Shown here: in pieces, positions 2,339-50,032 of the stretch
How the letters are laid out: the number at the start of each line of letters is the position of its first letter
Numbering within the stretch: the first letter of the stretch is position 1
Virus record (IMG/VR): IMGVR_UViG_3300028840_006907
Span: 192,001-256,000 of that record
Strand: one strand, 5' to 3'
Length of the DNA: 64,000 nt
Source of the DNA: a virus
Made by a program: the position numbers and the translations under genes
Notes under the pieces: generated by a model
Database searches by the model: none
Told to the model about the DNA's origin: nothing
What the model saw: only the letters and a program-made list of their open reading frames with translations

Positions 2339-4524
2339 ATTTTTATGCGTTCTCCTAAATTTGTGTTTCTTCTGTGTACACTCGAATTATTTATGGCTTT
2401 TTCTATAGCAGAACCATGACCTATTACAATTACTTTTGTTTTGGCTCTGGTTATAGCTGTGTACAATAAATTTCGTTGTAGCATATTTCTACCAAATTGA
2501 TTTATGAAAGGAAGTATTATAAAGGGATATTCCTGCCCTTGTGCTCGATGAACGGTGAGAGAATAGGCAAGTCTGACTTTTTCTAGAGCCTCATCAACTC
2601 CAATATCTACGGTTTTTTCAATTAAATCAATGGTGAATTTACCACCTCCAACATGAATAACTTTTCCTACCTCACCATTAAATACAGCTAGTTCATAATC
2701 ATTTTTGATAATTATAACCCTATCTCCCCGTCGAATAATAAATTTACCTACAGTACACTCTGTTTCAGGTCCAGCAGGATTTAATACAGCTTGAAGGCCG
2801 TCATTTAATTCATTTACACTTAACGGCCCTTCGTTACGGGGAGTAATGATTTGAAATAATCTACGTTCGTCTTTAAATTTTTGAGCGATTCTTATTATAA
2901 AATTTTGAATTTTTTCTACATTGTTTTCTCTTATGAAAAAAACATCTGCTTTCGGATCAGGTTTGAATAAACTCAAATCAGTATCACCACTCTTAATTCG
3001 GTGTGCTACTTTGATGATATCGGATGCCTCATCTTGACGGAATATCTGTTCCAGTTTTATAATAGGGATTTGACCACAGTGTATAAGTTCTCTTAAAACA
3101 TTTCCAGCACCGACTGAAGGTAATTGATTATTATCTCCAACGAGGATAAGATGTACACGATTTCTTAGAGCTGATAGAAGTCTATAAAAAACTTCCTGAT
3201 CGATCATTGAACTTTCATCTAGAATTACAACATCTGTTTCATATTTATTATGCTCACCGAATAACCAATCATCACCTCGGAATCCCAACCGTCTATGTAT
3301 CGTATACGCCCTGTAATTAATTGTAGTCTCCATTTTCTTAGCTGAAATACCTGTAGGGGCCATACAGGTCAGGTCTAGTTTTAGGCGCTTTATGAGGCTT
3401 ACAACGGCCTTTAACACTGTAGTTTTTCCCGCACCGGGAAGTCCTGTAATAACAAAAACTTTTTTCTCTACAAAATAATAAAGTGCTTTCCTTTGCTCCT
3501 CACTTAATGTAAAGCCGTTTTCGTGTTCAAATTGAGTGATGTGTTCATCAACCGATTTTCGATTCAGAAAAATAAGATCTGATTCTTTTTTAATAATTTT
3601 ACATATTTTTGATGCTGACAAGACTTCAGACATATAACATGATTTTGAGTATAATGATCCTAAATCTTTTACAATTTTCTGATCATCAATAAGATGTTTA
3701 ATATGAATTAAAATATCTGTTACGGTTATGGTTTTCTTATCTATAAAGGTTGTGTTTGTCTCTCGACTGAATCTGTTGATAAGATCTACTGTGTCTTCAA
3801 TGGTAAGAAAAAGATGACCATTGGCAGGACAAAGGACATTTAATGAGTATAATATAAATGCTACTAATCTTGTTGGATCATTTTCTGGAATCCCTAATTG
3901 CCGTGCTATAAAATCAGCAGTACTAAAACCGAATCCTTCTATTTCTGTAAGAAGATACGGATTTTCTCTGATTCTTTCTTCAGCTTCGAGTCCACCTCCA
4001 AAATATCTGAGGATTTTTTTAACTCTTCTTTCTCTAATGCCAAGTGAATTTAAAAAGGCTCTTAAACTATAATCTTGACGCTCTTTCTTCCAGCGATTTC
4101 GGTTAGTTACCCAGGCTTCTGCCAGACTTTCAGCGGAAATTTTACCTATACCTTCAACTTCAATTAAACGAGCTGGTTCAGTATCGAGAACAGTGATAGT
4201 CTCACTGCCAAAATGTTTAACAATTGCCTGAGCCCTTTCGGGTCCTATATTAGGGGATATTGCACCTATAAATAATTCAATACTTTTTATTTCTTCAACA
4301 TTATGGGAAATCGTGAATGAAGTAACTTTGAAATTAGTTCCATACTTATGATGCTTTTTATAATCACCATGGAAATTAGCGACAGTACCACTAACTACTT
4401 CAGGGCCGAATTCACCGATAACAGTAATAACTGGTCCAGATGGTATCCTGACCTTCATTACTTTGAATCCGGATTCTTCATTTTGGAAGATAATTCTTTT
4501 TACTGTACCTTTAACTGTTTCCAA
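2245..4524 (-). CDS. RecD-like SF1 ATP-dependent DNA helicase
   Basis: 759 aa; Walker A GLPGAGKTT, Walker B VVILDESSMID, C-terminal TRAKTKVIVIG-type motif of RecD/TraA family. Confidence 0.8.
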   Translation of the reverse strand: METVKGTVKRIIFQNEESGFKVMKVRIPSGPVITVIGEFGPEVVSGTVANFHGDYKKHHKYGTNFKVTSFTISHNVEEIKSIELFIGAISPNIGPERAQAIVKHFGSETITVLDTEPARLIEVEGIGKISAESLAEAWVTNRNRWKKERQDYSLRAFLNSLGIRERRVKKILRYFGGGLEAEERIRENPYLLTEIEGFGFSTADFIARQLGIPENDPTRLVAFILYSLNVLCPANGHLFLTIEDTVDLINRFSRETNTTFIDKKTITVTDILIHIKHLIDDQKIVKDLGSLYSKSCYMSEVLSASKICKIIKKESDLIFLNRKSVDEHITQFEHENGFTLSEEQRKALYYFVEKKVFVITGLPGAGKTTVLKAVVSLIKRLKLDLTCMAPTGISAKKMETTINYRAYTIHRRLGFRGDDWLFGEHNKYETDVVILDESSMIDQEVFYRLLSALRNRVHLILVGDNNQLPSVGAGNVLRELIHCGQIPIIKLEQIFRQDEASDIIKVAHRIKSGDTDLSLFKPDPKADVFFIRENNVEKIQNFIIRIAQKFKDERRLFQIITPRNEGPLSVNELNDGLQAVLNPAGPETECTVGKFIIRRGDRVIIIKNDYELAVFNGEVGKVIHVGGGKFTIDLIEKTVDIGVDEALEKVRLAYSLTVHRAQGQEYPFIILPFINQFGRNMLQRNLLYTAITRAKTKVIVIGHGSAIEKAINNSSVHRRNTNLGERIKICLQKKRKDSLPTSHGEPVSSPYVNPKEVPF

Positions 4525-6488: not shown

Positions 6489-6805
6489 TATTCTCCCTCG
6501 TCGTTATCGGTGTCATCATCATCTATATCAATTAAGATGTAACTGAATTGATCAAGTGTTTGTAAAGAGTGCCCAATTAATTTTGTTATATAATCTAAAA
6601 GTTTTTCCTTTAAAGGATCTTCCGATTTAAGAATGGTATAAGAATCTAGTGATTTACCAAATACATCGGATATAGATTTCAGTTTAAACTTCACAGCATC
6701 TAAAACCTGAAGTAAAGAATCGTTGTTCTGTTGGTCACTATTAAGTTTTTCCATATACTCCTTAAATTTATCATCCCCATATTCAGGGTCATTATTATTA
6801 CTCAT
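6488..6805 (-). CDS. hypothetical acidic protein
   Basis: 105-aa ORF ending in a D/E run; start overlaps ligase stop. Confidence 0.5.
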   Translation of the reverse strand: MSNNNDPEYGDDKFKEYMEKLNSDQQNNDSLLQVLDAVKFKLKSISDVFGKSLDSYTILKSEDPLKEKLLDYITKLIGHSLQTLDQFSYILIDIDDDDTDNDEGE

Positions 6806-7085
6806 TTTTGTCTATTCCTTTAAAATTGATAGAAGCTATCCTATATAATGATATGGAACTAACAAGGGTTTTCGATAAGTAAAAAATAAAAAAAGTTTTT
6901 AAGTCTAATGGTTTGAGTAAGTTACAAGAGGTAATTTTAGGTTTAAAAAAACCATGTTTTTTGATAAGAATATATAATATAGAGTATAAATAATCCTGTT
7001 TTTATGATTTACTAAAAAAGTAATTAATATAAATAGCTATATGAATATGTATATATGAATATAGTTATTTATTTTTTCCTGAATA

Positions 7086-7149
7086 AGGAAAAGTAAAATA
7101 AAAAAGAACAGAAAAATAGTAGTAGAAGAAGAGAGGAATGAGGATTAAA
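7086..7149. repeat. 64-bp direct repeat, copy 1
   Basis: AGGAAAAGTAAAATAAAAAAGAACAGAAAAATAGTAGTAGAAGAAGAGAGGAATGAGGATTAAA, identical to 8187-8250. Confidence 0.9.
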
Positions 7150-7395
7150 AAAGATATAGATGATATAAAAAGAACCAATATAATGAATTTAATAGTAAAA
7201 ATAAAAATTTAAGTCACCAATATAATGAATAAACTTATGAACAAAGTAAAAATATAACCTATAAAATCTTCAAAAAAAGTTAAATCATAACCTTATTTAT
7301 TCGAACCAGTTATAACAAAAAAAATAAAACCTTAAAAATTTTACTTATCACTTTACCTTTCTAACTTTGTATAAATAGTAGGAGGTAAATTTGAA

Positions 7396-7770
7396 ATGAA
7401 CACAATTTTTATCACAGGTTTGGATAAAATCTCTATTAAAAGATTCATCCAATTTATTCTAAAATACTTAAATGATTACCAAGTTGGTACACTTCATTAC
7501 TTAATGAGTGAAGAGAGCATAAACTATTACATCGAAGATTTTTCAAATAAATTTCAAAAAAGGATCTTCTCTTACTTCTTAAGGAAATCAGGAGATTCTA
7601 TACCCAATCTTCCTACTTCAATAACTGATAGTGCTGATCTTATCATATGGTTTGATTTATACAGTACTAAACCAATAGTTAAACAGAGTAAGACAGAACC
7701 GCATATTCTTAAAGGGGCTCTTATGGATTGGGCAAGACACATAGAGAAATTAGAGAAAGGGGGATTGTAG
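7396..7770 (+). CDS. hypothetical protein
   Basis: 124-aa ORF preceded by strong RBS TAGGAGGT 7-8 nt before ATG. Confidence 0.55.
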   Translation: MNTIFITGLDKISIKRFIQFILKYLNDYQVGTLHYLMSEESINYYIEDFSNKFQKRIFSYFLRKSGDSIPNLPTSITDSADLIIWFDLYSTKPIVKQSKTEPHILKGALMDWARHIEKLEKGGL

Positions 7771-8160
7771 AAAGCCAGTTTGAGGAGGATATTAGGGCTC
7801 AACCCTGTTTGAGGACCACCGGGGCACACGAGGCCGTTGTAACGATGTAAGTCGGTAGTGCCGTGTCATTTAGGAGTTCGATCCAGGGGGATAGATCGTG
7901 CCATGACTCCTGTCAGTATACCGTCATAGGTAAAACCGAGTTACTCAAGATATATTATACCGGTCTGAAGGGTTCATCAAACATGAGAAGTTTACATGGG
8001 TACAAGCCGTTTCTAAGAGTACCTCAAAATTGAATTTTAGCTGTTTTAGGAAACAAAGCCTTACTATGCATGTAGTAAGCGAAATGTCGCAGGCTCGTGC
8101 CTCGCTAGTGACCCAGCGGGGATGGTGAAGACAGAAAGGTGCATTAAAATTGAGTAATAG
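7771..8160 (+). ncRNA. candidate structured noncoding RNA (family unassigned; strand uncertain)
   Basis: ~390 nt noticeably GC-richer than surroundings, no convincing ORF, long-range complementarity (GGCACACGAGGC near 7820 with GCCTCGTGCC near 8090), local hairpins (AGGAGT...ACTCCT). Confidence 0.3.
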
Positions 8161-8186
8161 ATGTATCAATAAATAAAAAAATCAAT

Positions 8187-8250
8187 AGGAAAAGTAAAAT
8201 AAAAAAGAACAGAAAAATAGTAGTAGAAGAAGAGAGGAATGAGGATTAAA
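8187..8250. repeat. 64-bp direct repeat, copy 2
   Basis: Exact copy of 7086-7149, 1101 bp downstream. Confidence 0.9.
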
Positions 8251-8376
8251 TAGTGAATTAAATCAATGAGTTACAGTGAGTGCTACTGTGTAATTTAAAG
8301 CGGATTTAAATTTAAAATTAGTACTAAAAAATACAGTATAGTCTAAAAATAAAGGACTATTTATTAGGAATAAATT

Positions 8377-8559
8377 ATGTGTAATGGTTTATCTATTAAG
8401 GAAGATTTACCTAAAGTTGATATCCATGTTGAGTGTGACTGTGGAGAAGAATTAGACATCGATTTACATGGATGGAGTCTGTCTGTGTACGGTGGACTAG
8501 TATTTAAATGCCCTTCCTGTGAGTCAGAAATAAAGACCTATATGGTAGAGAGTGTGTGA
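8377..8559 (+). CDS. small zinc-ribbon protein
   Basis: 60 aa with CDCG...CPSC cysteine pairs. Confidence 0.45.
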   Translation: MCNGLSIKEDLPKVDIHVECDCGEELDIDLHGWSLSVYGGLVFKCPSCESEIKTYMVESV

Positions 8560-9367
8560 TACAGTTATGTGGAAACAAGATATAATACATGAGTTATTTA
8601 AAGAGACGATTAAAGTTAAAGGTGTTTTATACAAAATGGATATAGGAGAAGCTTATCCTCATGTCAAAGAGGGTCTCCCTATTTTAAAAGAATTCCTTCC
8701 AAAAACTGATTGTTATTACATGGGTACTCTTGATCTTACTGTGAAACTTATGGGTCAGTTTGAGAAGAATGCAGAACAAATGAAGTCAAATTATGATTAT
8801 GAAAACATACATTTTCCAAAGAAATATACTTTATGGGAATACTCTCTTCCTAAAGGAGGAAGGCATGGTATCAAAAAAGAGGCTCTGTATGTTTTAGATG
8901 AAGATAATAAAATATTCATTTGGCCGTTAATTTTTAGTCCAGAATTTAAAATATGGATTCCAGGTATGTATTGGGTATTTCTTTTTAAGAATCCTGCAGG
9001 TACGATGAAATTAGTGGGTCCAAATGATTTAAAAGAAGAAGAGATAGAGGATTTTGAAGAGACAGGACGGCGAGTTGTGTCTTATGTTCTAACCTTTTTG
9101 AAGATATTATCTTGTAAAAATGTAAAACAAGAAACCGTGACTTCTTATTTAACAAAACAGAAAAGGTACGGTAATAGACCTCTTTACCCTTATAAAATGG
9201 TGAGAGTTAAATCTATTAAATCGTATGAAGAGGATCCTGATTCTTCTGATTATGAAAACATTAGCTTCTGTCGTGGGCATTTTAAACAATATTTCCCAGA
9301 TAAACCGTTATTAGGAAAGTATACAGGTCTTTATTGGTGGGATCCTCATTTGCGGGAGGATGAGTAA
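8552..9367 (+). CDS. hypothetical protein
   Basis: 271-aa ORF, overlapping start with upstream stop. Confidence 0.5.
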   Translation: MCDTVMWKQDIIHELFKETIKVKGVLYKMDIGEAYPHVKEGLPILKEFLPKTDCYYMGTLDLTVKLMGQFEKNAEQMKSNYDYENIHFPKKYTLWEYSLPKGGRHGIKKEALYVLDEDNKIFIWPLIFSPEFKIWIPGMYWVFLFKNPAGTMKLVGPNDLKEEEIEDFEETGRRVVSYVLTFLKILSCKNVKQETVTSYLTKQKRYGNRPLYPYKMVRVKSIKSYEEDPDSSDYENISFCRGHFKQYFPDKPLLGKYTGLYWWDPHLREDE

Positions 9368-12002: not shown

Positions 12003-15000
12003 ATGGAGATCGAGATGCTATCACCTTTTGGGAAAATTGTCTGGGAAGATCGATACGCGCTGAAGGATGAATATGGGAAATTAATTGAAAAAAATATTTT
12101 AGAAACATTTCGTAGAGTTGCTACAGCTATTGCTTCTAAGGAAAAAGACTCTAAGTTTTGGGGTGACAAATTTTATAAGATTATGGCAGACCAATCTTTC
12201 TGTCCAGCCGGTAGAGTCCTAGCCCATTCAGGTACACATTATTCTCAACTTCTCAATTGTTTTGTTCTCCCATTCCAGGATGACAGTCTGGAAGAGATTA
12301 TGAACACTGGTAAAAACATGGCTATTGTTCAAAAATATGGTGGGGGCTGTATTGGAGGTGAGAGTAATATTCTTACTAATAAAGGTGTTGTACCATTAAA
12401 AGAAATTGTTGAAGGAAATGATAAAGATCTTAAAGTACTATCTTTTAATTCTGATAATAATGAGATGGAATACTGTGATATTTTAGAAAGACATACAAAT
12501 AATTTATCTGGGGATCGTGTATTCGAAATTGAGTTCGATAATACAAAAGGCGGTGTTGCATCAAGAATAAGAGCTAGCGATTGGCATCCCTTTTTTGTTT
12601 TTGATGGAGTAAAGATAATCCAAGTACGTGCTGATGAGTTAAAACCTGGGATGGCTGTAATAGGCTCAACTGATTTAGGGGTAAATTTAAAGTATGATTC
12701 TATGGGTTGGTTATTAGGTTATATTGCTGGTGACGGTTCGATTGATACTAATAATGGGGAAGATGTACGTGTTAGGGTAGTAGATGACAGTGAAGAGTGT
12801 GTTAAACGTGCAGCAGGAATATTTAATACATCTTATAAACCTTCTAGTGATAAACGTTATAAAGTAAAAATGTGGGCTTGTGAGGTTTATGGAGATGAAG
12901 CTGGGATGGTAAAGGATGAGTTTGGGGGGTATCAAACTAGTGGTACAAAACATGTCCCGAATTCTATCTGGGAAAGTTCTCCTGAAAGAAGACTTTCTTT
13001 TTTAGTTGGGCATATTGATGCAGATGGCTGGTTTAATAAAGAGAAAAAAAGATTTGAAGTTTTTACTGTTAGTAATGAATTGGCAAAAGAATTAATAGCC
13101 TTAGCTGGTGGTCTTGGTATTCGGGCTTCACTACGTTTTAGAAAATCACGTAAAGAAAATGAGCAAGATGGTTGGGAAGTTAGGTATAGTAGCTCTCAAT
13201 TTTCGATTGATTTAATTGTTAATATTAGTGCAAAACATAACCCACTCAATGCTGGATGGGTTATGGGTACTATAAATTTATCTCATGAATGGAAAGATCA
13301 TTTAAAAAGCGTAGGTATTAATGTTTATACAAATAAAGCATGGAGAAAGTCAATTGAAATTGATGGTGTAAAAAGATCATTAGTTTATTGGTTACAGCAT
13401 GGTAAAGCTTCAAGAGAAACTGCTGCTTCTATTCTTAGAGTGTGTGGTGAAGAAAAGATAGCAAGTGCTGTTTTATCTAGCCAAATAGTACTCTCTTCAA
13501 AGGCTACAGGAATTTCAGAAACATTATATGATCTCACTATTGCAAAAAATCAAACATATATGGCATCAGACCCAACTACAGGGGCTTATGTTGTTGTGCA
13601 TAATACAGGATTTAATTTCAGTAGGCTCAGACCATCAGGTTCATATATAAAAGGTGTCAATGGTCGTAGTAGTGGACCCATCGGATTTATTAGCATGATG
13701 TCAACTATCTCAGAAATAATTGAACAAGGCGGGACCCGCAGGGGCGCGTCAATAGGGCTTCTTGAGGCATGGCACCCTGATTTATGGGAGTTTGTTTCTT
13801 ATAAAACTGAACATAATTGGGAATGTCTTCGAGAATTTATTGATGTGAATGATTACGATAAATGGGAATCATTTAAATATGAAAATTTATATAAATGGCA
13901 AATGTTCAATGTCTCTGTAGGAATTACTGATGATTTCTTAGAATCTGTTAAAAACAATAAGGAATGGGTATTTAATTGGAAAGGGGAAGAGTGGGAACTT
14001 TATACCGTTATTTTTAAGAAATATATAAGTGAAGGTAATTACAAAGAATTAACATTTGAAGTTACAGCTAACAATGATCCTACTGCTATATGGAAAGTAA
14101 GAAAGAAAATACCTTATCCTACTGGTAGTGATATATTTGAAGTTACATCAAAAAGAAAAGTAAAAGCTTCCGAGATCTGGGATAGACTGTGTTATAATGC
14201 CTGGGCTGATGGATGTCCGGGCATTATCAATTTAAGTACTGCTCGTAGGATGCATAATTTAGAATATGCCTTCCCTATAGAAGCTACTAATCCTTGTTTT
14301 ACTGGAGATTGTAAATTGGATACTATCAATGGTCCTATGACTTTTGAAAGTCTTGAGGATAAAGAAATTGATCTTAAAACTCCATATGGTTCTATTGAAA
14401 AAGGTAGAATTTGGAAAACAGGGGTAAAATCTACTATCAGATTAAAATTTAATGATGGTAGTTCAATAACGGTTACTCCCGATCAACTATTTTTGTGTCA
14501 TAAAGGAAAAGAGATACGGGCTAAGGATTGTTTAAATAAATGTTTAAATACTTCGGATATACCGTTAAGTGTAGTTTCAATAGAGGATAATGGTGAACAA
14601 GAGGTCTATGATTTTTCAATCCCATGTAATTGGGGTATAGTTAATGGAATAGTGGCTCATAATTGTGGGGAGCAACCTTTAGGGGGATTTAGTTCTTGCA
14701 ATTTGTCAAGCATACTCCTTCCTAATTTTGTTATAGAGGATACCAAATCAGTTGATTGGGATAAACTTAAAGAGGTTGTTCATACTGCTGTCAGATTTTC
14801 GGATAATGTTGTAGATAATTGTGAATTTCCGATTCCGGAAATTAAAGATAAAGCATATCAGGAAAGACGTGTCGGACTAGGTACTATGGGAGTTCATGAC
14901 ATGTTAATCAAAATGGGACTAGATTATGATAGTGATGTGGGTCGTGATGCTGTGGAAGAGGTATTAAGATTTATTCGGGATGAAGCTTATAAAGCATCAA

Positions 15001-16085
15001 TTAAAATTGCGGAAGAGAAGGGGTCTTTTCCAGCCTTTAAAAAGAAAGAAATTTTAAAGAGTGGGTTTATAAAAACACTTCCACCAGAGATCGTAAAATT
15101 GATTGGGAAAAATGGTATTAGAAATAGTGCCCTTTTATCCCAGGCACCCACAGGATCGATCTCAGCGTTAAATAACGTTTCATCTGGGTGTGAACCATGG
15201 TATTCATTATCCTTCCAAAGAAACACTCGTTTGGGTTCCTATGAAGATGGTTGTCCAACTTATATTGAATGGAAGAAAAATAACCCCGAAGCTCCCATAC
15301 CATCCTATTTTAAAACAGCTCCAGAAATAAGCCCTACAGATCACGTAAAAATGCTTATTCTTTTTAGTAAATACATTGATTCAGCGGTGAGTAAGACAGT
15401 TAATCTCCCAAATCATACAACAGTAGATACAGTTAAAGAGACATTTATTTATGCTATGGAAAATGGTGTAAAAGGTCTGACTGTTTTTCGGGATGGTTCT
15501 AAAGAAGGTGTTTTAGTAAATAAACAAAACAAGAAAAAAATTGAAGAAATAATTCCATATACAGATAAAGAAGATTGTTATGAAAATGTAATGTCTCCTA
15601 AAAAGCGGGGAGATAAAACAACTGGTTCAACATATCGTATTCATATGCAAAGTCATAATTTATATGTTACAGTTAATCGAAATAGAGATGGTGATTTAGT
15701 AGAGCTTTTTACTACAGTTGGAGAGAGTAAAAAACCTAATGCACATCATACTAGTGGTGTTGAAGATTCCTGGGCAGAGGGTCTTGGTAAAATAATTAGT
15801 CTAGCTCTGCGTGCAGGAGTGAAACCTAGTTCAATAATTCGGAATTTAAAAAATATTCCATCAGATAAACCAGTATTTGTTACTATCGGTGATAATGAAA
15901 ATTCTGAGCATATACCTTCTCCACCTCATGCTATTGCTAGGGTAATAGAAGATGAGATGAGTAATGGTGAAGAAGAAATTAATATTCAAGGAGGTTATTG
16001 CTCAGAATGTGGCTCAACAAATACTAAAAAGAAGAGTCCCACTTGTTACGAGTGTTTTGACTGTGGCTACGTAGCTTGTGGTTAA
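12003..16085 (+). CDS. nrdJ: ribonucleotide reductase, class II (adenosylcobalamin type), containing two inteins
   Basis: Extein motifs GGG/TGFNFSRLRPSG and TNP/CGEQPL restored after removing two in-frame insertions; C-terminal Cys-rich tail. Confidence 0.8.
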   Translation: MEIEMLSPFGKIVWEDRYALKDEYGKLIEKNILETFRRVATAIASKEKDSKFWGDKFYKIMADQSFCPAGRVLAHSGTHYSQLLNCFVLPFQDDSLEEIMNTGKNMAIVQKYGGGCIGGESNILTNKGVVPLKEIVEGNDKDLKVLSFNSDNNEMEYCDILERHTNNLSGDRVFEIEFDNTKGGVASRIRASDWHPFFVFDGVKIIQVRADELKPGMAVIGSTDLGVNLKYDSMGWLLGYIAGDGSIDTNNGEDVRVRVVDDSEECVKRAAGIFNTSYKPSSDKRYKVKMWACEVYGDEAGMVKDEFGGYQTSGTKHVPNSIWESSPERRLSFLVGHIDADGWFNKEKKRFEVFTVSNELAKELIALAGGLGIRASLRFRKSRKENEQDGWEVRYSSSQFSIDLIVNISAKHNPLNAGWVMGTINLSHEWKDHLKSVGINVYTNKAWRKSIEIDGVKRSLVYWLQHGKASRETAASILRVCGEEKIASAVLSSQIVLSSKATGISETLYDLTIAKNQTYMASDPTTGAYVVVHNTGFNFSRLRPSGSYIKGVNGRSSGPIGFISMMSTISEIIEQGGTRRGASIGLLEAWHPDLWEFVSYKTEHNWECLREFIDVNDYDKWESFKYENLYKWQMFNVSVGITDDFLESVKNNKEWVFNWKGEEWELYTVIFKKYISEGNYKELTFEVTANNDPTAIWKVRKKIPYPTGSDIFEVTSKRKVKASEIWDRLCYNAWADGCPGIINLSTARRMHNLEYAFPIEATNPCFTGDCKLDTINGPMTFESLEDKEIDLKTPYGSIEKGRIWKTGVKSTIRLKFNDGSSITVTPDQLFLCHKGKEIRAKDCLNKCLNTSDIPLSVVSIEDNGEQEVYDFSIPCNWGIVNGIVAHNCGEQPLGGFSSCNLSSILLPNFVIEDTKSVDWDKLKEVVHTAVRFSDNVVDNCEFPIPEIKDKAYQERRVGLGTMGVHDMLIKMGLDYDSDVGRDAVEEVLRFIRDEAYKASIKIAEEKGSFPAFKKKEILKSGFIKTLPPEIVKLIGKNGIRNSALLSQAPTGSISALNNVSSGCEPWYSLSFQRNTRLGSYEDGCPTYIEWKKNNPEAPIPSYFKTAPEISPTDHVKMLILFSKYIDSAVSKTVNLPNHTTVDTVKETFIYAMENGVKGLTVFRDGSKEGVLVNKQNKKKIEEIIPYTDKEDCYENVMSPKKRGDKTTGSTYRIHMQSHNLYVTVNRNRDGDLVELFTTVGESKKPNAHHTSGVEDSWAEGLGKIISLALRAGVKPSSIIRNLKNIPSDKPVFVTIGDNENSEHIPSPPHAIARVIEDEMSNGEEEINIQGGYCSECGSTNTKKKSPTCYECFDCGYVACG
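12348..13604 (+). mobile_element. intein 1 with LAGLIDADG homing-endonuclease domain (419 aa)
   Basis: Starts Cys (CIGGESNIL), ends VVVHN followed by Thr; two LAGLIDADG-type blocks LLGYIAGDGSID and FLVGHIDADGWF; splits the RNR GGGxGxxxSRLRP motif. Confidence 0.8.
14295..14663 (+). mobile_element. mini-intein 2 (123 aa, no endonuclease domain)
   Basis: Starts CFTGDCKLDTING, ends NGIVAHN followed by Cys; splits the RNR NPCGE active-site motif. Confidence 0.75.
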
Positions 16086-35039: not shown

Positions 35040-38000
35040 GTGTCGGAAGTTTATCAGGGTGATTATGCCCCTAATTTATATAATGAGGAAAAGCGTTATT
35101 ACTTATTTCAAGCACAACAGTTGACAAATCTAACTGATGCTGAACTTCGTGATTTACATAATATATCGAACACGTATGTCCGTCGTACAGTGCAAGCTCA
35201 AATTGGTGATTGTGCAATACAAGATGGTTATAAAATTGCTGAGAATACTTCGGATAAGTCTAACAATTTTCTTATAACAGGAGGAAGTGGTACTCTTGAT
35301 GATCCAGGGATGTATTATCTTAAAGGATATCGATTATTCCTTTTAGGTGATATAGCCTATAAAGATCAAACAGATACAGGTACTATTACCGATGACGGTT
35401 ATACTAAAACTATATTACCTGCTCTGACAACGCCTACTGGGGTCACCTCCACTTTAAATAGCCTTTCTTTAAGTAATCCCACTCTTATCTGTTGTGGTGA
35501 TACGAGTGCTATTGCTAACTCTTCTGATTGGGGTCGAAATTGGGTTGATAGAAATGCTATGACATCCCAAAATCTAAATGGTTCTTCTTTAGGAGACGCC
35601 TCAGTCGGTTATGCAGTTGGTAATGTGGGAGCTGTTCTTCGTACAACTGATAGTGGAAATAGTTGGATAAATATCCGAACAAGTTTACCAACTCTACCAA
35701 CAAATTATCAAAATGTTAATTTCTTTGATGCTTATTTTGTGAACTCTTCTATCGGATGGATCACGGGTCAAAGTGGTGCCATATTAAAAACAATAAATGA
35801 TGGGACTAGTTGGACTGTACAGGGATCTGGTGTCACTACTTCAGATTTAAGTGGTGTTCATGGGACTGGATTAACTGATGTGTGGGCTGTCGGTAGTAGT
35901 GGTATGGTGGTAAAAACGACTGATGGTACAACCTGGTCTCAACAAGCTAGTGGAACTCTTTTTAATTTATCAAGAGTACATGCTATTAATACATTGGTCG
36001 CTTATGCTGTTGGTAATAGCGGTACTATAATAAAAACAACGAATGGTGGTACATCTTGGTCTGCACTTACTTCTGATACTACAGAAAATCTTCGTGATGT
36101 TCATTTCACGGATTTAAATAATGGTTGGGCTGTTGGTGATAATGGTACGATTACCCGAACAGATGATGCAGGTTCAACCTGGGATTCTTCTACTATTGCC
36201 AGTGTCGATTTAAGAGCTGTTACTTTTTATGATACCACAGGATTTACTGCTGGTGGAAGTGGTGAGATTTACAGAACTCTTGATAATACAAATTGGGTGA
36301 AATATCGTACTGATTATGTTTACATTGATTTCCATCTAGCTGAGGTTTCAGGTGATGCCACCTCAGGTAGTGAATACATAGATACAAGTTTAGTGGATGC
36401 GACTGTAGGTTATCCAAGTGCCAATAGATTGAGGGTGGTCTCTGATGTAAAAGTGTCTGAAGGGTGGCCAGCTCCAGCCGATTACACCAATACTGATGCT
36501 ACCCTTCAGCATTATATCGCTCCTCTTGCGTCAATAGAGCGTTCGGTGGGTACAAGTGATATAACTTCAGCTAACATCACAGATTTAAGAACTGTTGTTC
36601 GTACTATTGGTGAGATTGATGCTGCCCTTAAAGACGGAAGTATTGGTACTTCTGCAATAGCTGATGGAGCTATTACCCCTGATAAACTTGATAGTACTGG
36701 CGATTATACAATGGGATCACTCAGTATCTTGGGAGATTCTTCTATTGCTGGTGATTTAACTATAGGCGGTATATTAGTTGTTAGTGATTATAGAACTAGC
36801 ACTATCATGGATAATCTTGTGGTACGGGGATCTGCTCAATTAGGTGATTCAACAGCTCCATATGAGGATAGTGTTAATATTTATGGTAATATTACTCAAG
36901 TATTAGATTCAACTAAAATCGCTTATGATATACAAACATCTTCAACAACTGATGCTTCTCCAATAATTAAAATTGTTTCTGATAGTACAGGTAGTGTATG
37001 GCATGTAGAAAGTAAATCTCAAACGACATCGAGTCTTTTTGATGCTACTACACAGAATATGGGGTATGATTTCCATTTAAATCATTTAGGATATGAAGGT
37101 GGCTTATTTAAATTAAGGGATGATGCAAGTAACCATACCATTACTATATCTAAGACAGCTCCAGGATTTAGAGGGTCTGTTTTAGATGTTACAAGTAATA
37201 GCAATGACCCAACAATAAATATCGTAAACAGAGCTTTATCTGATTCAACAAGTTTAAGTATTGACCAGACTCATGGGACCATGATTACTTTGAATACGTT
37301 GGGTGATGCTTCTGGTATCGATATTTATTCACAAGGCTCTGGAAGAGACCTACATATAGATCATTCAGGTACTTTAGGAATAGCTGTAGATATTACTAGT
37401 TCCAGTGCACAGGTTGCAATGAATCTTGTAAATCAGATGGGACCTGCTGTAGTAATAACTCAGAATGGTGATGATGAAGCTCTGTTGGTTTTAAATAAAG
37501 ATTCTACAACCTTAGGAAGAGCTTTAGAGATTAACCATAGAGGTAGTGATGTTGGATTAGGTGTTTATAATACTGGTACTGGAATGGGTCAGCTAATTTC
37601 ACATGTAGGTGATTCTACTCATCCTGCATTAGATATTTATGTAGCAGGGAATGAAAAAGGTCCAGCTCTTCGTATAAATAAGGCAAATGATGAAACTGGT
37701 GAAGGTATAAGAGTATGGAATCAAGGTTTTAGCGAATCCTTAAGATTAATTCAGGATAGAACCGATTCCTCAGCTACAGTACTTTTAATTGAAAGCCAGA
37801 GTATTGGTTATGATGTTAGCTCTAGTAATTGGAATATAGATAGCTCAGGTAATATTTATACCGCTGGAAGTATTACTTCTGATTCTACTGCTACTGTAAC
37901 AAGTTCTAAATTTGCTTTTGATAGTACTTATTATATGACTTCTACAGGGATGTATCTTGATAACAGTGGCTATGATTCCTCTAATCCTGCTGTAGCTGGT

Positions 38001-41000
38001 AGGGCGTTTATAGAATCAGGTTTTTTAAGAGTCAGTGACGGTACTACAGCTTCTCCAATACCTTCATGGGGTGCTACTGGTGCCACAGGAAATACTGGGG
38101 CTACAGGATCCACAGGGGCTACAGGATCAGGGACTCAAGGAACAACAGGAGTTCAAGGATCTGCCGGGGCTACTGGAGCTACTGGACCGGCTGGAACTGG
38201 TTCTACAGGAGTCCAAGGTGTCCAGGGTGAAACCGGTATTCAGGGTCTCCAAGGTGATACGGGTGTTAGTTTAGGAGCAACAGGCTTGCAAGGTATCACA
38301 GGTCTCAGGGGATTCACGGGACTGCAGGGTCAAACCGGTGTTGCTGGGGAAACCGGAGTTCAGGGAGTGCAGGGACAAACCGGAGCTTTTGGTGGCCCTC
38401 CAGGAGAAACTGGCGTGCAAGGTGTCCAAGGAAACACTGGAGTACAAGGAACTACTGGAGTTCAAGGATCAACCGGAGTTCAAGGAATTCAAGGTCAGAC
38501 CGGAATTCAGGGAATCCAAGGAAATACTGGAGTACAAGGAATTCAAGGTAATACTGGAGTACAAGGTCAAACCGGAGTAAGTGGAGAAACTGGAGTACAA
38601 GGAACTACTGGAGTTCAGGGTATTCAAGGTCAAACTGGTATAGCAGGTCAGACAGGTATAGCAGGTCAAACCGGAGTTCAAGGAATCCAGGGAATTCAAG
38701 GTCAAACAGGTGCCCAGGGTTTAACAGGAGTAGCAGGTGAGACTGGAGTCCAAGGATCTCAGGGAAATACCGGAGTTCAAGGTATCCAAGGGCATACGGG
38801 AGCTGGGATACAAGGTACTACTGGTGTTCAAGGTTTACAAGGTCAGACTGGCTCTCAAGGTACTACTGGAATTCAGGGAGAAACTGGTGTAGGTATCCAA
38901 GGTCAGACGGGTGTTGCCGGTGTTGATGGCCAAACCGGAATTCAAGGAATCCAAGGAACCACAGGAGTTCAAGGTGAAACAGGAACTCAAGGAATTCAAG
39001 GAAATACCGGAATTCAAGGAACTCAAGGAAGCACAGGAGTTCAAGGAGAAACTGGAGTTGGTGCTCAAGGAACTACTGGAGTGCAAGGAATACAAGGAAA
39101 TACTGGAGTTCAGGGAACAACCGGAGTTCAGGGAATTCAAGGTCAAACCGGTGTTCAGGGAACACAAGGAGAAACAGGTTATATAGATTCTTCCAGTGTT
39201 AATCATAACGCTCTTCTTAATTTAACTGTTGGTGATGACCATACTCAGTATGCTTTTTTAGCTGGTCGTACTGGTGGGCAAACTATAAATGGTGGTGATG
39301 CTGCTTCAGACGTTTTAACTCTTCAAAGTACTACTGATACTACAAAAGGGAACATCATTCTTAATCCTATTAGTGGGGATGTCCCTGGTAAAGTTGGTAT
39401 AGGAGTAACATCTCCGATTTATCAATTACATGTTGGAGAGATTTTAGATGGCGGTACTGTAGGTATATGTATAAATAACCAGTATACTGCAAATGGATCA
39501 GTTGATGAAACTGCTAGTTTAATATATAGATTTGGTAGGCCACTCAGTCCTCAATATAGAGTAGCAGGTCAAGTATTAGTAGGTAAGGAACAGGATTGGT
39601 GGGATTATAATAGTACTGACGCTTATATGGCTTTTCATACTACTCGTGATACAATTTCACGTGAACAGATGAGAATTAATGCTCAAGGTTATGTTGGAAT
39701 AGGTACAACAAATCCCCAAGCTAAGCTTCATGTAACGACATTTGCTCAATTTGATGAAGGCTTTTCAACTAATATCGGTATAGGTGTTACCGCTCCTCAG
39801 GCACAGTTACATGTCGGAGAGAGTGTAACTGATGGAGATGTTTCAATAATTGTGAATAACTGGTCTTGGACTGGAGGGTCTGTAGATGAGACAGCTAGTT
39901 TACAATTCCGTTTTGGGCCTCCTCCAAGTAATTATTCTGCTGGTAAAATTTCTGCTCATAAAACTTTAGATTATATGAGTTTCGATAATAGAGACTCTTA
40001 TATGACTTTTAGTGTTGTAAATAATCAATCTGAAGTTGAGCGTATGAGGATTTTAAATGATGGAAAGGTAGGTATTGGTACAACTGATCCTCAAGAAAGA
40101 CTGCATGTAATTGATAGGGGTCAATTTGATATGGGGCTACAACAACCTATTGGTATAGGTGTAACGGCTCCATTAGCTGAATTACATGTTGGTAATAGTA
40201 CTAATGGTGGTGATGTAGGCATTATTATTAATAACCAATACAATACTACTGGATCAGTTGATGAAACAGCAAGTTTAATTTATAGATTCGGTACAGTAGG
40301 AAGTGCAAATTATCGAGTAGCTGCCAGAATTTGTGCTCATAAAGAATTAGACTGGCAATCTTTTGATAATGTCGATTCAGCTTTAGCTTTTAGGACTACT
40401 CGAAATCAATCTGAAAATGAAAGAATGAGAATAACTAGTGAAGGTGATGTAGGAATTGGTACTGTCACACCTTCAGAAAAATTACATGTAGAAGGTAATA
40501 TTTATACTACTAATGGTTTTCTTGCTGGTGGGAACATCCAAATTGAAGGGGACTTTTTAGGAGGGACTGATGGTAATTCTAATTTAGGCTCTACTTCAAG
40601 AAGATTTAATAACCTTTATATGGCTTCTTCGATAAATTATAATTCTGATCTAACCTTTGATTGTACGGGTACCCATGTAACCCTTACAACTGGTGGTAAC
40701 GTAGGTATAGGAACTACAAATCCCCAAGGATTATTTCATGTTTCTGATGATACCAATGGTGGTGATGTAGGTATTGTTGTTAGTAATCGCTATATTGGTG
40801 GTGGGTCAGTTGATGAAACAGCTAGTATGATTTATCGTTTTGGCCATCCGTTAGGAGTAGCTAATAAAGTTGCAGCCAGAATAAGTGCCCATAAAGAATT
40901 AGATTGGGCAAACTCTAATAATACTGATGCTGCTTTGATTTTCTGGACTACTCGTGATGCTGTTGAACGACAACAGATGAGAATTGATAGCAATGGTTAC

Positions 41001-42053
41001 TTAGGAATCGGTATAACTAATCCTCAGGAAATATTACATGTAGATGGTAATATCGTAGGATCATCTGGTTCTAATTTAGGGTCTGCTGCATTAAGATTTT
41101 CTAATCTTTATTTGGCTTCTTCTATAAACTATAATTCTGATCTTAATTTTGATTCAACAGGAACACATGTCACTTTTACAACAGGTGGTAATGTAGGTAT
41201 AGGTACTACAGATCCGCAAGCATTATTACATGTCTTTGATAGTACTAACGGTGGTGATGTTGAAGTTATAATTACTAATGACTATTATAGTGTTAGTTCG
41301 TTGGATGAAACTACCAGTATAACTTTTCAAAATAGAGGTCACGATGGTAATAGGTATACTGCAAGTAGAATTCTTTGTGGAAAAGAAGGAGATTTTAGTA
41401 TCTCTGATAGAAAAGGTTATCTAGCTTTCCATACAGTTAATCAAAGTTCATTTGAAAGAATGCGAATTACTTATGATGGTAATGTCGGTATAGATACTAC
41501 GGCACCTTTAGATAAGCTTTCTGTCGAAGGTCAAATGTCTGTGACTCTTGCAGGTGATCGAAAATTTAAAGTAGATAGTACAGGACAAATTTATTCCGAT
41601 GCAGGTACATCAATATTTACTCCTGCTGACCTTGCTGAATGGTCAAAGGTAGAGGGGTATCTGGAAGAATATGAGTTAGGTATGGTAGTACAACAATCCT
41701 GTGTAGATTTAACCGTTAAGCTAGCTGATAGCCCTTCTGAGAGAGTATATGGTGTGGTTACAAACCGTGCCACATTTTTGGGAAGTCTTACTGGTATTGA
41801 TAAGAAAATATTAAAAGAATTAACGGATAGTGAGATAGAAGATGAGTTCAATGCCAAAAAAATAGCAATGGTAGGGCATGTTCAAGTTCTGGTAAAGGGT
41901 ACCGTTAATATAGGTCAGTCATTGACTCTTTCTGATAAGAAAGGAATAGCACGGGGAGCTACAACTTTTGAAGAAAAAGCTCTGGCTCTTGGTATTGCAA
42001 GAGAAAGTTATGATTCAACCGATATAGGACTTATTGAGGCGAGATTATTATAA
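35040..42053 (+). CDS. giant fiber-like protein (2337 aa): BNR/Asp-box propeller, collagen-like tract, tandem ~105-aa repeats
   Basis: GTG start after RBS GGAGG; repeated SxDxGxTW-like boxes (TDSGNSW, NDGTSW, TDGTTW, NGGTSW); Gly-X-Y tract about 38065-39180; six repeats containing GSVDETASLIYRFG. Confidence 0.8.
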   Translation: MSEVYQGDYAPNLYNEEKRYYLFQAQQLTNLTDAELRDLHNISNTYVRRTVQAQIGDCAIQDGYKIAENTSDKSNNFLITGGSGTLDDPGMYYLKGYRLFLLGDIAYKDQTDTGTITDDGYTKTILPALTTPTGVTSTLNSLSLSNPTLICCGDTSAIANSSDWGRNWVDRNAMTSQNLNGSSLGDASVGYAVGNVGAVLRTTDSGNSWINIRTSLPTLPTNYQNVNFFDAYFVNSSIGWITGQSGAILKTINDGTSWTVQGSGVTTSDLSGVHGTGLTDVWAVGSSGMVVKTTDGTTWSQQASGTLFNLSRVHAINTLVAYAVGNSGTIIKTTNGGTSWSALTSDTTENLRDVHFTDLNNGWAVGDNGTITRTDDAGSTWDSSTIASVDLRAVTFYDTTGFTAGGSGEIYRTLDNTNWVKYRTDYVYIDFHLAEVSGDATSGSEYIDTSLVDATVGYPSANRLRVVSDVKVSEGWPAPADYTNTDATLQHYIAPLASIERSVGTSDITSANITDLRTVVRTIGEIDAALKDGSIGTSAIADGAITPDKLDSTGDYTMGSLSILGDSSIAGDLTIGGILVVSDYRTSTIMDNLVVRGSAQLGDSTAPYEDSVNIYGNITQVLDSTKIAYDIQTSSTTDASPIIKIVSDSTGSVWHVESKSQTTSSLFDATTQNMGYDFHLNHLGYEGGLFKLRDDASNHTITISKTAPGFRGSVLDVTSNSNDPTINIVNRALSDSTSLSIDQTHGTMITLNTLGDASGIDIYSQGSGRDLHIDHSGTLGIAVDITSSSAQVAMNLVNQMGPAVVITQNGDDEALLVLNKDSTTLGRALEINHRGSDVGLGVYNTGTGMGQLISHVGDSTHPALDIYVAGNEKGPALRINKANDETGEGIRVWNQGFSESLRLIQDRTDSSATVLLIESQSIGYDVSSSNWNIDSSGNIYTAGSITSDSTATVTSSKFAFDSTYYMTSTGMYLDNSGYDSSNPAVAGRAFIESGFLRVSDGTTASPIPSWGATGATGNTGATGSTGATGSGTQGTTGVQGSAGATGATGPAGTGSTGVQGVQGETGIQGLQGDTGVSLGATGLQGITGLRGFTGLQGQTGVAGETGVQGVQGQTGAFGGPPGETGVQGVQGNTGVQGTTGVQGSTGVQGIQGQTGIQGIQGNTGVQGIQGNTGVQGQTGVSGETGVQGTTGVQGIQGQTGIAGQTGIAGQTGVQGIQGIQGQTGAQGLTGVAGETGVQGSQGNTGVQGIQGHTGAGIQGTTGVQGLQGQTGSQGTTGIQGETGVGIQGQTGVAGVDGQTGIQGIQGTTGVQGETGTQGIQGNTGIQGTQGSTGVQGETGVGAQGTTGVQGIQGNTGVQGTTGVQGIQGQTGVQGTQGETGYIDSSSVNHNALLNLTVGDDHTQYAFLAGRTGGQTINGGDAASDVLTLQSTTDTTKGNIILNPISGDVPGKVGIGVTSPIYQLHVGEILDGGTVGICINNQYTANGSVDETASLIYRFGRPLSPQYRVAGQVLVGKEQDWWDYNSTDAYMAFHTTRDTISREQMRINAQGYVGIGTTNPQAKLHVTTFAQFDEGFSTNIGIGVTAPQAQLHVGESVTDGDVSIIVNNWSWTGGSVDETASLQFRFGPPPSNYSAGKISAHKTLDYMSFDNRDSYMTFSVVNNQSEVERMRILNDGKVGIGTTDPQERLHVIDRGQFDMGLQQPIGIGVTAPLAELHVGNSTNGGDVGIIINNQYNTTGSVDETASLIYRFGTVGSANYRVAARICAHKELDWQSFDNVDSALAFRTTRNQSENERMRITSEGDVGIGTVTPSEKLHVEGNIYTTNGFLAGGNIQIEGDFLGGTDGNSNLGSTSRRFNNLYMASSINYNSDLTFDCTGTHVTLTTGGNVGIGTTNPQGLFHVSDDTNGGDVGIVVSNRYIGGGSVDETASMIYRFGHPLGVANKVAARISAHKELDWANSNNTDAALIFWTTRDAVERQQMRIDSNGYLGIGITNPQEILHVDGNIVGSSGSNLGSAALRFSNLYLASSINYNSDLNFDSTGTHVTFTTGGNVGIGTTDPQALLHVFDSTNGGDVEVIITNDYYSVSSLDETTSITFQNRGHDGNRYTASRILCGKEGDFSISDRKGYLAFHTVNQSSFERMRITYDGNVGIDTTAPLDKLSVEGQMSVTLAGDRKFKVDSTGQIYSDAGTSIFTPADLAEWSKVEGYLEEYELGMVVQQSCVDLTVKLADSPSERVYGVVTNRATFLGSLTGIDKKILKELTDSEIEDEFNAKKIAMVGHVQVLVKGTVNIGQSLTLSDKKGIARGATTFEEKALALGIARESYDSTDIGLIEARLL
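38065..39180 (+). repeat. collagen-like GXY triplet-repeat tract (9/18-bp periodic DNA repeat)
   Basis: Continuous GxQ/GxT triplets without proline, e.g. GVQGETGIQGQTG. Confidence 0.85.
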
Positions 42054-49955: not shown

Positions 49956-50032
49956 GAGAAAATAGCTCAGTTGGTCAGAGCGCGAGATTTAGGTTCTTGA
50001 AGTCTTCGGTTCAATTCCGAATTTTCTTACCA
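49956..50032 (+). tRNA. tRNA, predicted anticodon UAG (Leu-type) with short variable loop and encoded CCA
   Basis: Cloverleaf: acceptor GAGAAAA/TTTTCTT, D arm GCTC-AGTTGGTCA-GAGC, anticodon arm CGAGA-TTTAGGT-TCTTG, 5-nt variable loop, T arm TTCGG-TTCAATT-CCGAA, A73, CCA. Confidence 0.75.

Follow-up and report, generated by a model that had tools for sequence, protein, structure and literature searches.

To our knowledge, large natural RNAs that combine many helices, pseudoknots and invariant junctions are rare, and those that are understood are almost all ribozymes, ribonucleoprotein (RNP) cores or, as recognised recently, self-assembling particles; since the understood cases fall mostly into these classes, a new large RNA is a direct lead to new RNA biochemistry. 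GOLLD and ROOL, which typically lie near tRNA genes and often reside in phages or prophages, are large and intricate non-coding RNAs that contain pseudoknots or kissing loops and have yet to be given a biochemical function. In one cryo-EM account of the two, long-range loop contacts are reinterpreted as intermolecular (10.1101/2024.12.08.627333). A precedent of another kind is offered by the PeSLs of T4-type phages, near-identical short direct repeats around one or few genes in intergenic regulatory DNA, whose recombination gives rise to mini-circles (PMC2839356, PMC4122927). Here we describe a non-coding RNA encoded at positions 7774-8167 of the plus strand in a 64,000-nucleotide (nt) stretch of viral DNA, positions 192,001 to 256,000 of the IMG/VR record IMGVR_UViG_3300028840_006907 (hereafter, the window). 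It shares with GOLLD and ROOL all the traits just listed except the association with tRNA genes, and by analogy its loop-loop pairing could be intra- or intermolecular. Unlike them, it is matched by no RF01998-type or ROOL/GOLLD model, measures ~395 nt as against ~580-800 nt, and is tied to one small protein gene, the open reading frame (ORF) ORF124, and to replication genes, within a repeat-flanked cassette.

Comparison with homologues shows that 7774-8167 is the gene for a highly structured non-coding RNA of ~395 nt, with ~17 helices, belonging to a previously undescribed family. A first-pass annotation, made by a model from the letters of the window, had placed a structured non-coding region at 7771-8160, almost exactly where the conserved element lies, and had proposed covariation with homologues as a check; the structure proves to be strongly conserved. 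Two alignments were used: A2, with 8 distinct sequences, and A7, with 10 distinct sequences (the window and 9 from metagenomic phage contigs, two of the ten being distant), in which homology was assigned with nhmmer and MAFFT. On A2, RNAalifold returned 86 pairs, 35 of them with compensatory changes; a capping hairpin and two pseudoknots were added to this model before the pairs were counted. In the resulting set of 102 pairs, 95.7% of the cells are paired, compared with 37-44% in slid controls, and double changes are found in 40 pairs, compared with 4-7 when the sequences are slid; none of 500 shuffles reached the observed values (1 of 500 for pair types). The wider alignment A7 gives the same picture over 72 pairs, with 93.8% of the cells paired (35-43% in slid controls), double, that is compensatory, changes in 43 of the 72 pairs (8-12 slid) and 0 of 500 shuffles reaching the observation. 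G-U is the commonest pair type at several positions and in several helices, which indicates that the transcript is the plus strand, as for the neighbouring genes. This comparison establishes the existence, strand, fold and genomic anatomy of the RNA only.

The overall fold shown by covariation consists of a two-armed 5' domain closed by two long-range helices and a five-hairpin 3' domain, the two being locked together by a pseudoknot and a short terminal helix (all coordinates are on the plus strand). The 5' end is joined to the 3' domain by H1, of 3 bp (7774-7776/8124-8126). The closing helices are H2 (7778-7785/8022-8029), with double changes in 7 of its 8 pairs, and H3 (7792-7795/8013-8016), where pairing is 100% and 2 pairs covary; AGGATAT (7786-7792), an invariant junction, lies between their 5' strands, and their 3' partners flank an invariant AGAGTAC. 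One arm is built from H4 (7803-7806/7885-7888) and H5 (7814-7820/7873-7878), both 100% paired with compensatory changes, and is capped by a hairpin of variable length (7823-7867), of 57 nt here and of ~30 nt with a cUACGg loop in relatives; in the homologous locus L028 the whole H4/H5 arm is missing. The other arm is a long covarying stack, H6-H9 (7898-7916/7965-8003), ending in a three-way junction with H10 and H11. All four pairs of hairpin H10 (7919-7931) covary, and its conserved GUCRUR loop is kept in L027 and L028; covariation likewise supports hairpin H11 (7935-7964), and a variable hairpin, H12, occupies 7986-7997. The 3' domain (8040-8167), nearly invariant in most relatives, contains hairpins H13 (8040-8057), H14 (8059-8078), H15 (8079-8090), H16 (8100-8121) and H17 (8138-8167), together with the conserved single strand GGTGAAGACAGAAAGGT (8124-8140). 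Between L028 and the main clade some 60 nt of this domain hardly vary, though the ORF124 proteins are only 39% identical; together with the conserved unpaired junctions, this suggests a macromolecular partner or an active core.

The loop-loop pseudoknot PK1 pairs TACTCAA in the H11 loop (7942-7948) with TGAGTA in the H17 loop (8151-8156), a perfect 8-nt complement in the window. In any single sequence such a match is not above chance for loops so rich in A and U; across lineages, however, the partners vary together (UACUC/GAGUA, UGCUC/GAGCA, UGCC/GGCA and UGCUUC/GAAGCA), which by our reading amounts to roughly three independent compensatory events and supports the pairing. A second pseudoknot, GCUUAA/UUAAGC (7799-7802/8036-8039), has one covarying position only and two exceptions, and is proposed tentatively.

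The structure is thus proven by covariation and not by the features on which the first-pass annotation had relied. The thermodynamic signal is nil: the minimum-free-energy fold of the single sequence is no better than that of shuffles (z = +0.08 for the plus strand and -1.67 for the minus strand), and from this one sequence alone the case for structure would be weak. The local hairpins that had been reported do exist. The long-range complementarity does not hold: the quoted string GCCTCGTGCC is absent, the actual sequence at 8092 being GGCTCGTGCC, which has with GGCACACGAGGC at 7823 an interrupted match of 5+3 bp only, unreported by a repeat search and not kept in the homologues. In the conserved fold these two segments fall into different local helices, 7823-7827 pairing with 7863-7867 and 8100-8108 lying within a local hairpin. 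The statement that the region is clearly richer in G+C than the rest stands as far as the mean is concerned (45.6% for 7771-8160, 35.7% for the whole window), and 200-nt windows give 43-49% where the flanking intergenic DNA has 19-33%; as a distinctive mark it is weaker, ~9.5% of all 390-nt windows being equal to it or exceeding it. The richest 400-nt bins (up to 0.555) sit not in the RNA element but inside two giant ORFs of 2337 and 3078 amino acids (aa), at 35040-42053 and 54251-63487. In these ORFs, strongly purine-skewed blocks of 48-55% G+C alternate with stretches of ~37% G+C; the blocks look like repeated low-complexity or collagen-like modules. As to coding, we agree that the element holds no credible ORF: stops occur in every frame, the listed ORFs are short and overlapping, and no ORF of at least 20 aa is common to the 10 homologues.

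The constant upstream partner of the RNA is ORF124 (7396-7770, plus strand; 124 aa), the first gene of a plus-strand ORF block ~35 kb long (7396-42053). The window encodes a terminase large subunit, clamp loader subunits delta' and delta, a class II ribonucleotide reductase (RNR) with an intein, an NAD-dependent ligase and a RecD2-type helicase, and identical copies of the proteins that flank the element occur on contigs of 388,651 and 469,617 bp; on account of these contigs and of the terminase, clamp-loader and RNR genes we assign it to a huge phage. ORF124 is represented by seven close protein clusters, and on every contig carrying it an un-annotated gap follows directly. A syntenic contig, L003, was reached through the downstream 271-aa protein; its gap is ~75% identical to the window element, with conserved blocks, stems of variable length and evident compensatory changes. 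When an ORF124 profile was run against 1.84 billion representatives, 76 clusters (50% identity) were recovered, nearly all of ~120-130 aa and stand-alone. The RNA homologue is recognisable by nhmmer in L027 (ORF124 36% identical; E 2e-21) and L028 (39% identical; E 9e-29), and in all the ORF124-family loci examined, G+C-rich non-coding DNA follows the gene directly. Each locus, the window included, has one copy of the element.

BLAST of the element, and of the surrounding 10 kb, against 50,697 phage records gave no match, and a search of IMG/VR with two flanking proteins gave no relatives; a ligase-based search returned only 30%-identical ligases on unrelated contigs lacking the RNA. A 5' DNA pattern fitting all 8 close homologues recovered from JGI metagenomes a single contig, which was already known, and matched nothing in IMG/VR or in GTDB genomes; a mid-element pattern had no match in IMG/VR. 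The 1 viral and 20 genome matches to a 3' core pattern were all chance by nhmmer (~17 expected, by estimate). Since these exact-pattern scans yielded nothing new, the family is rare in IMG/VR, JGI metagenomes and GTDB genomes.

In all loci that are long enough the gene order is the same: the RecD2 helicase and, mostly, the ligase run leftward, and ORF124, the RNA, zero to three small variable ORFs and the clamp loader delta'/delta run rightward. At this point, where the leftward (ligase, RecD2) and rightward (clamp loader, RNR) genes diverge, ORF124 and the RNA form a two-gene cassette within near-identical direct repeats. In the window the two copies, at 7086-7149 and 8187-8250, are 64 nt long and 100% identical, and they are the only two in 64 kb; the second begins 20 nt after the last RNA helix. 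Repeats in equivalent positions are found in L003 (3955-4048/5290-5383; core of ~63 nt, 2 mismatches), L008 (258-321/1416-1479; 64 nt, 98%), L027 (2658-2705/3773-3820; 48 nt, 100%), L028 (3865-3913/4712-4760; 49 nt, 98%) and L029 (3879-3940/4673-4734; 62 nt, 95%). In all 6 of the 6 lineages with enough flank they enclose exactly the iteron-like repeats, ORF124 and the RNA, copy 2 beginning no more than ~20 nt after the last RNA helix and the iteron-like repeats standing just inside copy 1. The repeat is a purine-rich tract without a stem-loop or obvious promoter. Its sequence is unrelated between genomes and 95-100% identical within each, a pattern that denotes concerted evolution, for which recombinational looping-out, amplification or a functional need for identity are possible causes. 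Several short Logan contigs (L017, L012) are exactly the assembly-graph segments between the repeats and confirm them in other samples; such segments are equally expected for an integrated copy and do not show circles.

The likeness to PeSLs lies in these near-identical repeats around ORF124 and the RNA (64 nt and 100% in the window; 48-64 nt and 95-100% elsewhere). PeSLs, however, are many-copy elements with a sigma-70-like early promoter and a terminator stem-loop, placed around variable non-essential ORFans in hyperplastic regions, whereas here there are exactly two copies per window, without stem-loop or obvious promoter, and the same conserved gene and RNA are enclosed in lineages down to 26% protein identity. 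The cassette is therefore not a member of the PeSL class, which is its nearest precedent.

The divergent intergenic DNA around copy 1 looks origin-like. Iteron- or promoter-like repeats, ACCAATATAATGAAT, stand at 7174-7188 and 7216-7230 on the plus strand, and iteron-like tandem repeats extend over 6840-7230 in the window (ACCAATATAATGAAT, two to three times), 2717-2780 in L027 ((GAGTACT)x9), 4076-4330 in L003 and 2-207 plus 330-404 in L008. The intergenic DNA that carries them is very AT-rich (19-24% G+C in the window, 7.5-20% in L003) and coincides with the strand switch and with a local minimum of cumulative G+C skew. Taken together, these features point to a candidate replication origin or promoter array. 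On the other side of the RNA, after copy 2, lie two conserved plus-strand hairpins: TTACAGT(GAGTGCT)ACTGT with a conserved 7-nt loop (~8271-8293), which is kept as UUACAG..CUGUAA in L027 (~3830-3856), and the AT-rich AATTTAAA..TTTAAATT (~8293-8311), which covaries (AUUUAAA/UUUAAAU, ACUUGAA/UUCAAGU, AUUAUAA/UUAUAAU) and includes G-U pairs in L007 and L011. Termination, processing or protein binding are possible roles for the two hairpins.

The 5' flank of the RNA is also conserved. A Shine-Dalgarno-like purine-rich motif, GAAAGGGGG (7755-7763), and TTGTAGA (7765-7771), the equivalent of TTATAAG in relatives, both on the plus strand, are kept in all 10 sequences. These GAAAGGRGG and TTATAAG-like motifs are read in different frames (EKGGL* in the window, QERSL* in L011) or stand 3' of the stop codon (L007, L008, L027 and L028), and for this reason we regard them as nucleic-acid signals. 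Many proteins of the ORF124 family end in Gly-Gly, because the purine-rich motif overlaps the last ORF124 codons. The Shine-Dalgarno-like motif stands 8-14 nt 5' of the RNA, and farther in L027, where an extra hairpin intervenes. A STAB-SD is a Shine-Dalgarno sequence, GAAAGGAGG, at the 5' side of an RNA and without a start codon after it. It is credited as a 5' stabiliser to Agaisse and Lereclus (1996), as cited in PMC3997798. The likeness is that the same motif precedes our RNA irrespective of reading frame, and it concerns the 5' flank only, not the RNA body; by this analogy the motif may act as a STAB-SD stabiliser, or may belong with TTATAAG to a promoter or processing site.

The RNA was compared with all 4227 models of Rfam 15, at the gathering threshold and at E<=10, in the window and six homologue loci. 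As the first-pass annotation had proposed this search, it should be said that no family matches the element in any of them, even at E<=10. None of the GOLLD, ROOL, OLE, HEARO/omega RNA, raiA, SRP and 6S models, and none of the riboswitch families, cobalamin included, hits the element at E<=10; no Rfam tmRNA match was obtained, and ARAGORN found no tmRNA in the window or the 6 homologue loci. RNase P was rejected, no model matching at E<=10: in H3 the CR-I-like GAGGAUAUC has as its partner a CUGA lying ~220 nt downstream, and for ACAGAAAGG there is no P4-type partner as in RNase P. Likenesses perceived by eye to RNase P CR-I/CR-V, tmRNA, SRP helix 8 and the B12 box of cobalamin riboswitches are supported neither by Rfam nor by helix topology. 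An rRNA mimic (ACACUGAAAAUUGAG against 23S ACACUGAACAUUGAG) was likewise discarded, the match being confined to L003 and L006 with E 0.43 and having no E. coli counterpart. The RNA fits no described family or mechanism, and we see in it a new class of large phage RNA; should it prove to be a leader or a primer, it would be a variant of an already known kind. Of the candidates put forward in the first-pass annotation, a phage-associated large non-coding RNA is the one borne out, by a heavily covarying, conserved RNA of no known family in a huge-phage window. The combination of no Rfam match with a conserved structure, and with no short conserved peptide that explains the region, leaves that annotation standing in its essentials.

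Our leading reading, held tentatively, is that the RNA is trans-acting, either a folded RNA or part of an RNP with ORF124 as the simplest partner, and that it serves an early or replication-linked step of infection. We prefer it because of the tertiary complexity, the invariant unpaired junctions and the joint inheritance with ORF124 within the repeats, even where a different RNA sequence has taken its place; the RNA is probably not a simple cis-regulator. Under this proposal, GAAAGGRGG and TTATAAG at the 5' edge of the RNA would be expression, processing or stabilising signals, and the direct repeats would permit recombinational looping-out or homogenisation of the cassette. Tractability adds to the interest of the RNA: ~395 nt suits chemical probing and cryo-EM, the candidate partner protein has 124 aa, and L028 is a natural variant without a whole arm. 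It sits, moreover, in the replication module of uncultivated huge phages, and the direct repeats around gene and RNA, concerted across lineages diverged to 26% protein identity, are a second, independent puzzle.

Several observations weigh against action in trans or as an RNP. ORF124 has a degenerate P-loop-like fold without a Walker A motif; a conserved SPDKxS stands at that position, and D10 and W112 are invariant. Neither ORF124 nor its neighbours match Pfam, PADLOC or NCBIfam. As this fold is generic, with best fold matches at Foldseek E>1e-3 and no RNA-binding domain, co-inheritance is the sole ground for the RNP idea. The partnership itself may be looser than it seems. In L029 (4367-4779) and L030 (3893-4305) a 413-nt non-coding gap of 47% G+C lies between ORF124 (26% identical) and the clamp loader, inside direct repeats. 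No similarity to the RNA family can be detected in it: either the homologue there has diverged very far or a different RNA has taken its place. Since the gap is so dissimilar, the partner of ORF124 may be 'an RNA' and not necessarily this one. In L027 and L029 the clamp-loader gene is the next one after the RNA, and in L028 a single 99-aa ORF comes between them, which fits a cis-acting leader equally well. The origin-like status of the neighbouring DNA is derived from composition, strand switch and repeats only. The set is limited to 10 distinct sequences, so that several of the compensatory changes may be single inherited events. Finally, the RNA is known from sequence comparison, and a transcript separate from the ORF124 mRNA, with ends and abundance of its own, is a prediction.

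A cis-acting leader or antiterminator of the rightward plus-strand block (~35 kb), which would control read-through, translation or stability of the clamp-loader and downstream genes and might, in one variant, sense a ligand or protein, is possible but somewhat unlikely. Folded nascent RNAs just after the first gene of a long early operon are familiar from lambda nut and HK022 put, which are hairpin elements of 20-75 nt. Our RNA occupies the same kind of place, at a fixed position after the first gene of block 7396-42053 and, in the three lineages just mentioned, directly or one small ORF upstream of the clamp loader. Conserved hairpins follow it, no intrinsic terminator-like site was found in 6700-8700, and no intrinsic terminator separates it from the downstream genes. 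It is, however, five to twenty times larger than nut or put, has conserved multi-helix junctions and bears no similarity to them that we found; at 375-430 nt, with ~17 helices and a pseudoknot, it far exceeds known antiterminator RNAs and riboswitches, and it matches no riboswitch model. In different lineages one to three unrelated small ORFs, the direct repeat and the hairpins lie before the clamp loader, so that tight coupling to one downstream start is not conserved, and the repeats group the RNA with ORF124 and not with the downstream genes. Even if it is no more than a leader, no known cis-acting phage RNA would be larger or more elaborate. More doubtful is an origin-associated pre-primer or R-loop RNA, whose purine-rich 3' extension into repeat copy 2 would prime or license replication, the iterons, ORF124 and the RNA being the phage's origin module. 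ColE1 RNA II and the T4 oriF/oriG transcripts are structured or R-loop primer RNAs, and the resemblance is that of a folded transcript of several hundred nt beside an AT-rich origin-like region, followed by a tract that could hybridise to DNA. The cassette does lie at the strand switch and local skew minimum, in DNA of 19-24% G+C with iteron-like repeats in four lineages and replication genes on both sides; the purine-rich A tract of copy 2 follows the RNA at once, and a requirement for one RNA-DNA hybrid at two sites could explain why both repeats are kept identical. Yet the skew minimum coincides with the change in gene orientation and is not independent evidence, the 3' end of the RNA is tied to no DNA start site, and known primer RNAs need no such tertiary complexity or invariant junctions. 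ColE1 RNA II and the T4 transcripts have no sequence relation to our RNA, which is under far more tertiary constraint, and both the origin, which is not mapped, and the hybrid are hypothetical here. A bolder form, which we also consider unlikely, has the iterons, ORF124 and the RNA as a self-contained, excisable or amplifiable origin module of a deep huge-phage clade, with the RNA as its essential catalytic or architectural component. The RNA, with the degenerate P-loop protein, would then, for instance, prime or license replication or build a higher-order RNA or RNP particle, and the repeats would be kept identical because the mechanism needs them; if true, this would mean a new functional class of large RNA and a new organisation of phage origins.

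A self-splicing intron, an intron remnant or another mobile or self-cleaving ribozyme is very unlikely, although the size and complexity are within the ribozyme range, direct repeats flank the cassette, and the intein with a LAGLIDADG endonuclease in the RNR gene shows that selfish elements are present in the same phage. The intron remnant suggested in the first-pass annotation finds no support: the models for group I, group II and small ribozymes gave no match at E<=10 in 7 loci, there is no split gene, and the element occupies the same syntenic place in every relative, its presence being universal and not sporadic. For group I there is no Intron_gpI match at E<=10 and the helix order lacks the P3-[P4-P6]-P7-P3'-P8-P7' topology, with its P3-P7 pseudoknot layout; as an interrupter of a gene it fails as well, since the ORF124 stops vary and lie before or inside the 5' flank, no coding resumes after 8167, and all relatives carry the element at the same site. 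Group II introns have six domains, a 34-nt domain V with an AGC triad and a 2-nt bulge, and a GUGYG 5' end. The RNA matches neither Intron_gpII nor the D1D4 models of Rfam, does not have the six-domain layout, begins with RAGCC, and has as its candidate fifth hairpin one of 22-24 nt, in which there is a 1x1 internal loop but neither AGC triad nor bulge. Neither a homing endonuclease nor a reverse transcriptase is found near the element. Hardly tenable is a small-protein gene, or compositional noise with structure as a by-product. A 21-codon ORF (MSHAFTGSEVPGTDGEDRKVH) does follow AGGAGGTGA in the 3' domain of L003 and L008, with a related peptide in L027. It is the only recurrent small ORF, and in 6 of 10 sequences either the AUG or the frame is lost: the AUG is missing in L006, L007, L014 and L011, and 2-nt indels break the frame in the window and in L028. 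We rejected it because start codon and frame are not conserved across the homologues. The substitutions are moreover pairwise compensatory and not codon-patterned, and the supposed Shine-Dalgarno bases are the 3' strand of helix H14, which covaries on A2. The trans or RNP reading, the leader, the simpler form of the origin RNA, the intron or ribozyme and the small-protein gene together take up most of the probability, the small remainder going to explanations not listed here.

Two further features of the window deserve mention. Its class II (B12-type) RNR, at 12003-16085, is split by an intein with a LAGLIDADG homing endonuclease and has a TSCPD domain, and the homologue in L028 appears to contain two inteins. 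A single tRNA gene, for tRNA-Leu (anticodon UAG), is present at 49956-50032 and is the sole gathering-level Rfam match in the window.

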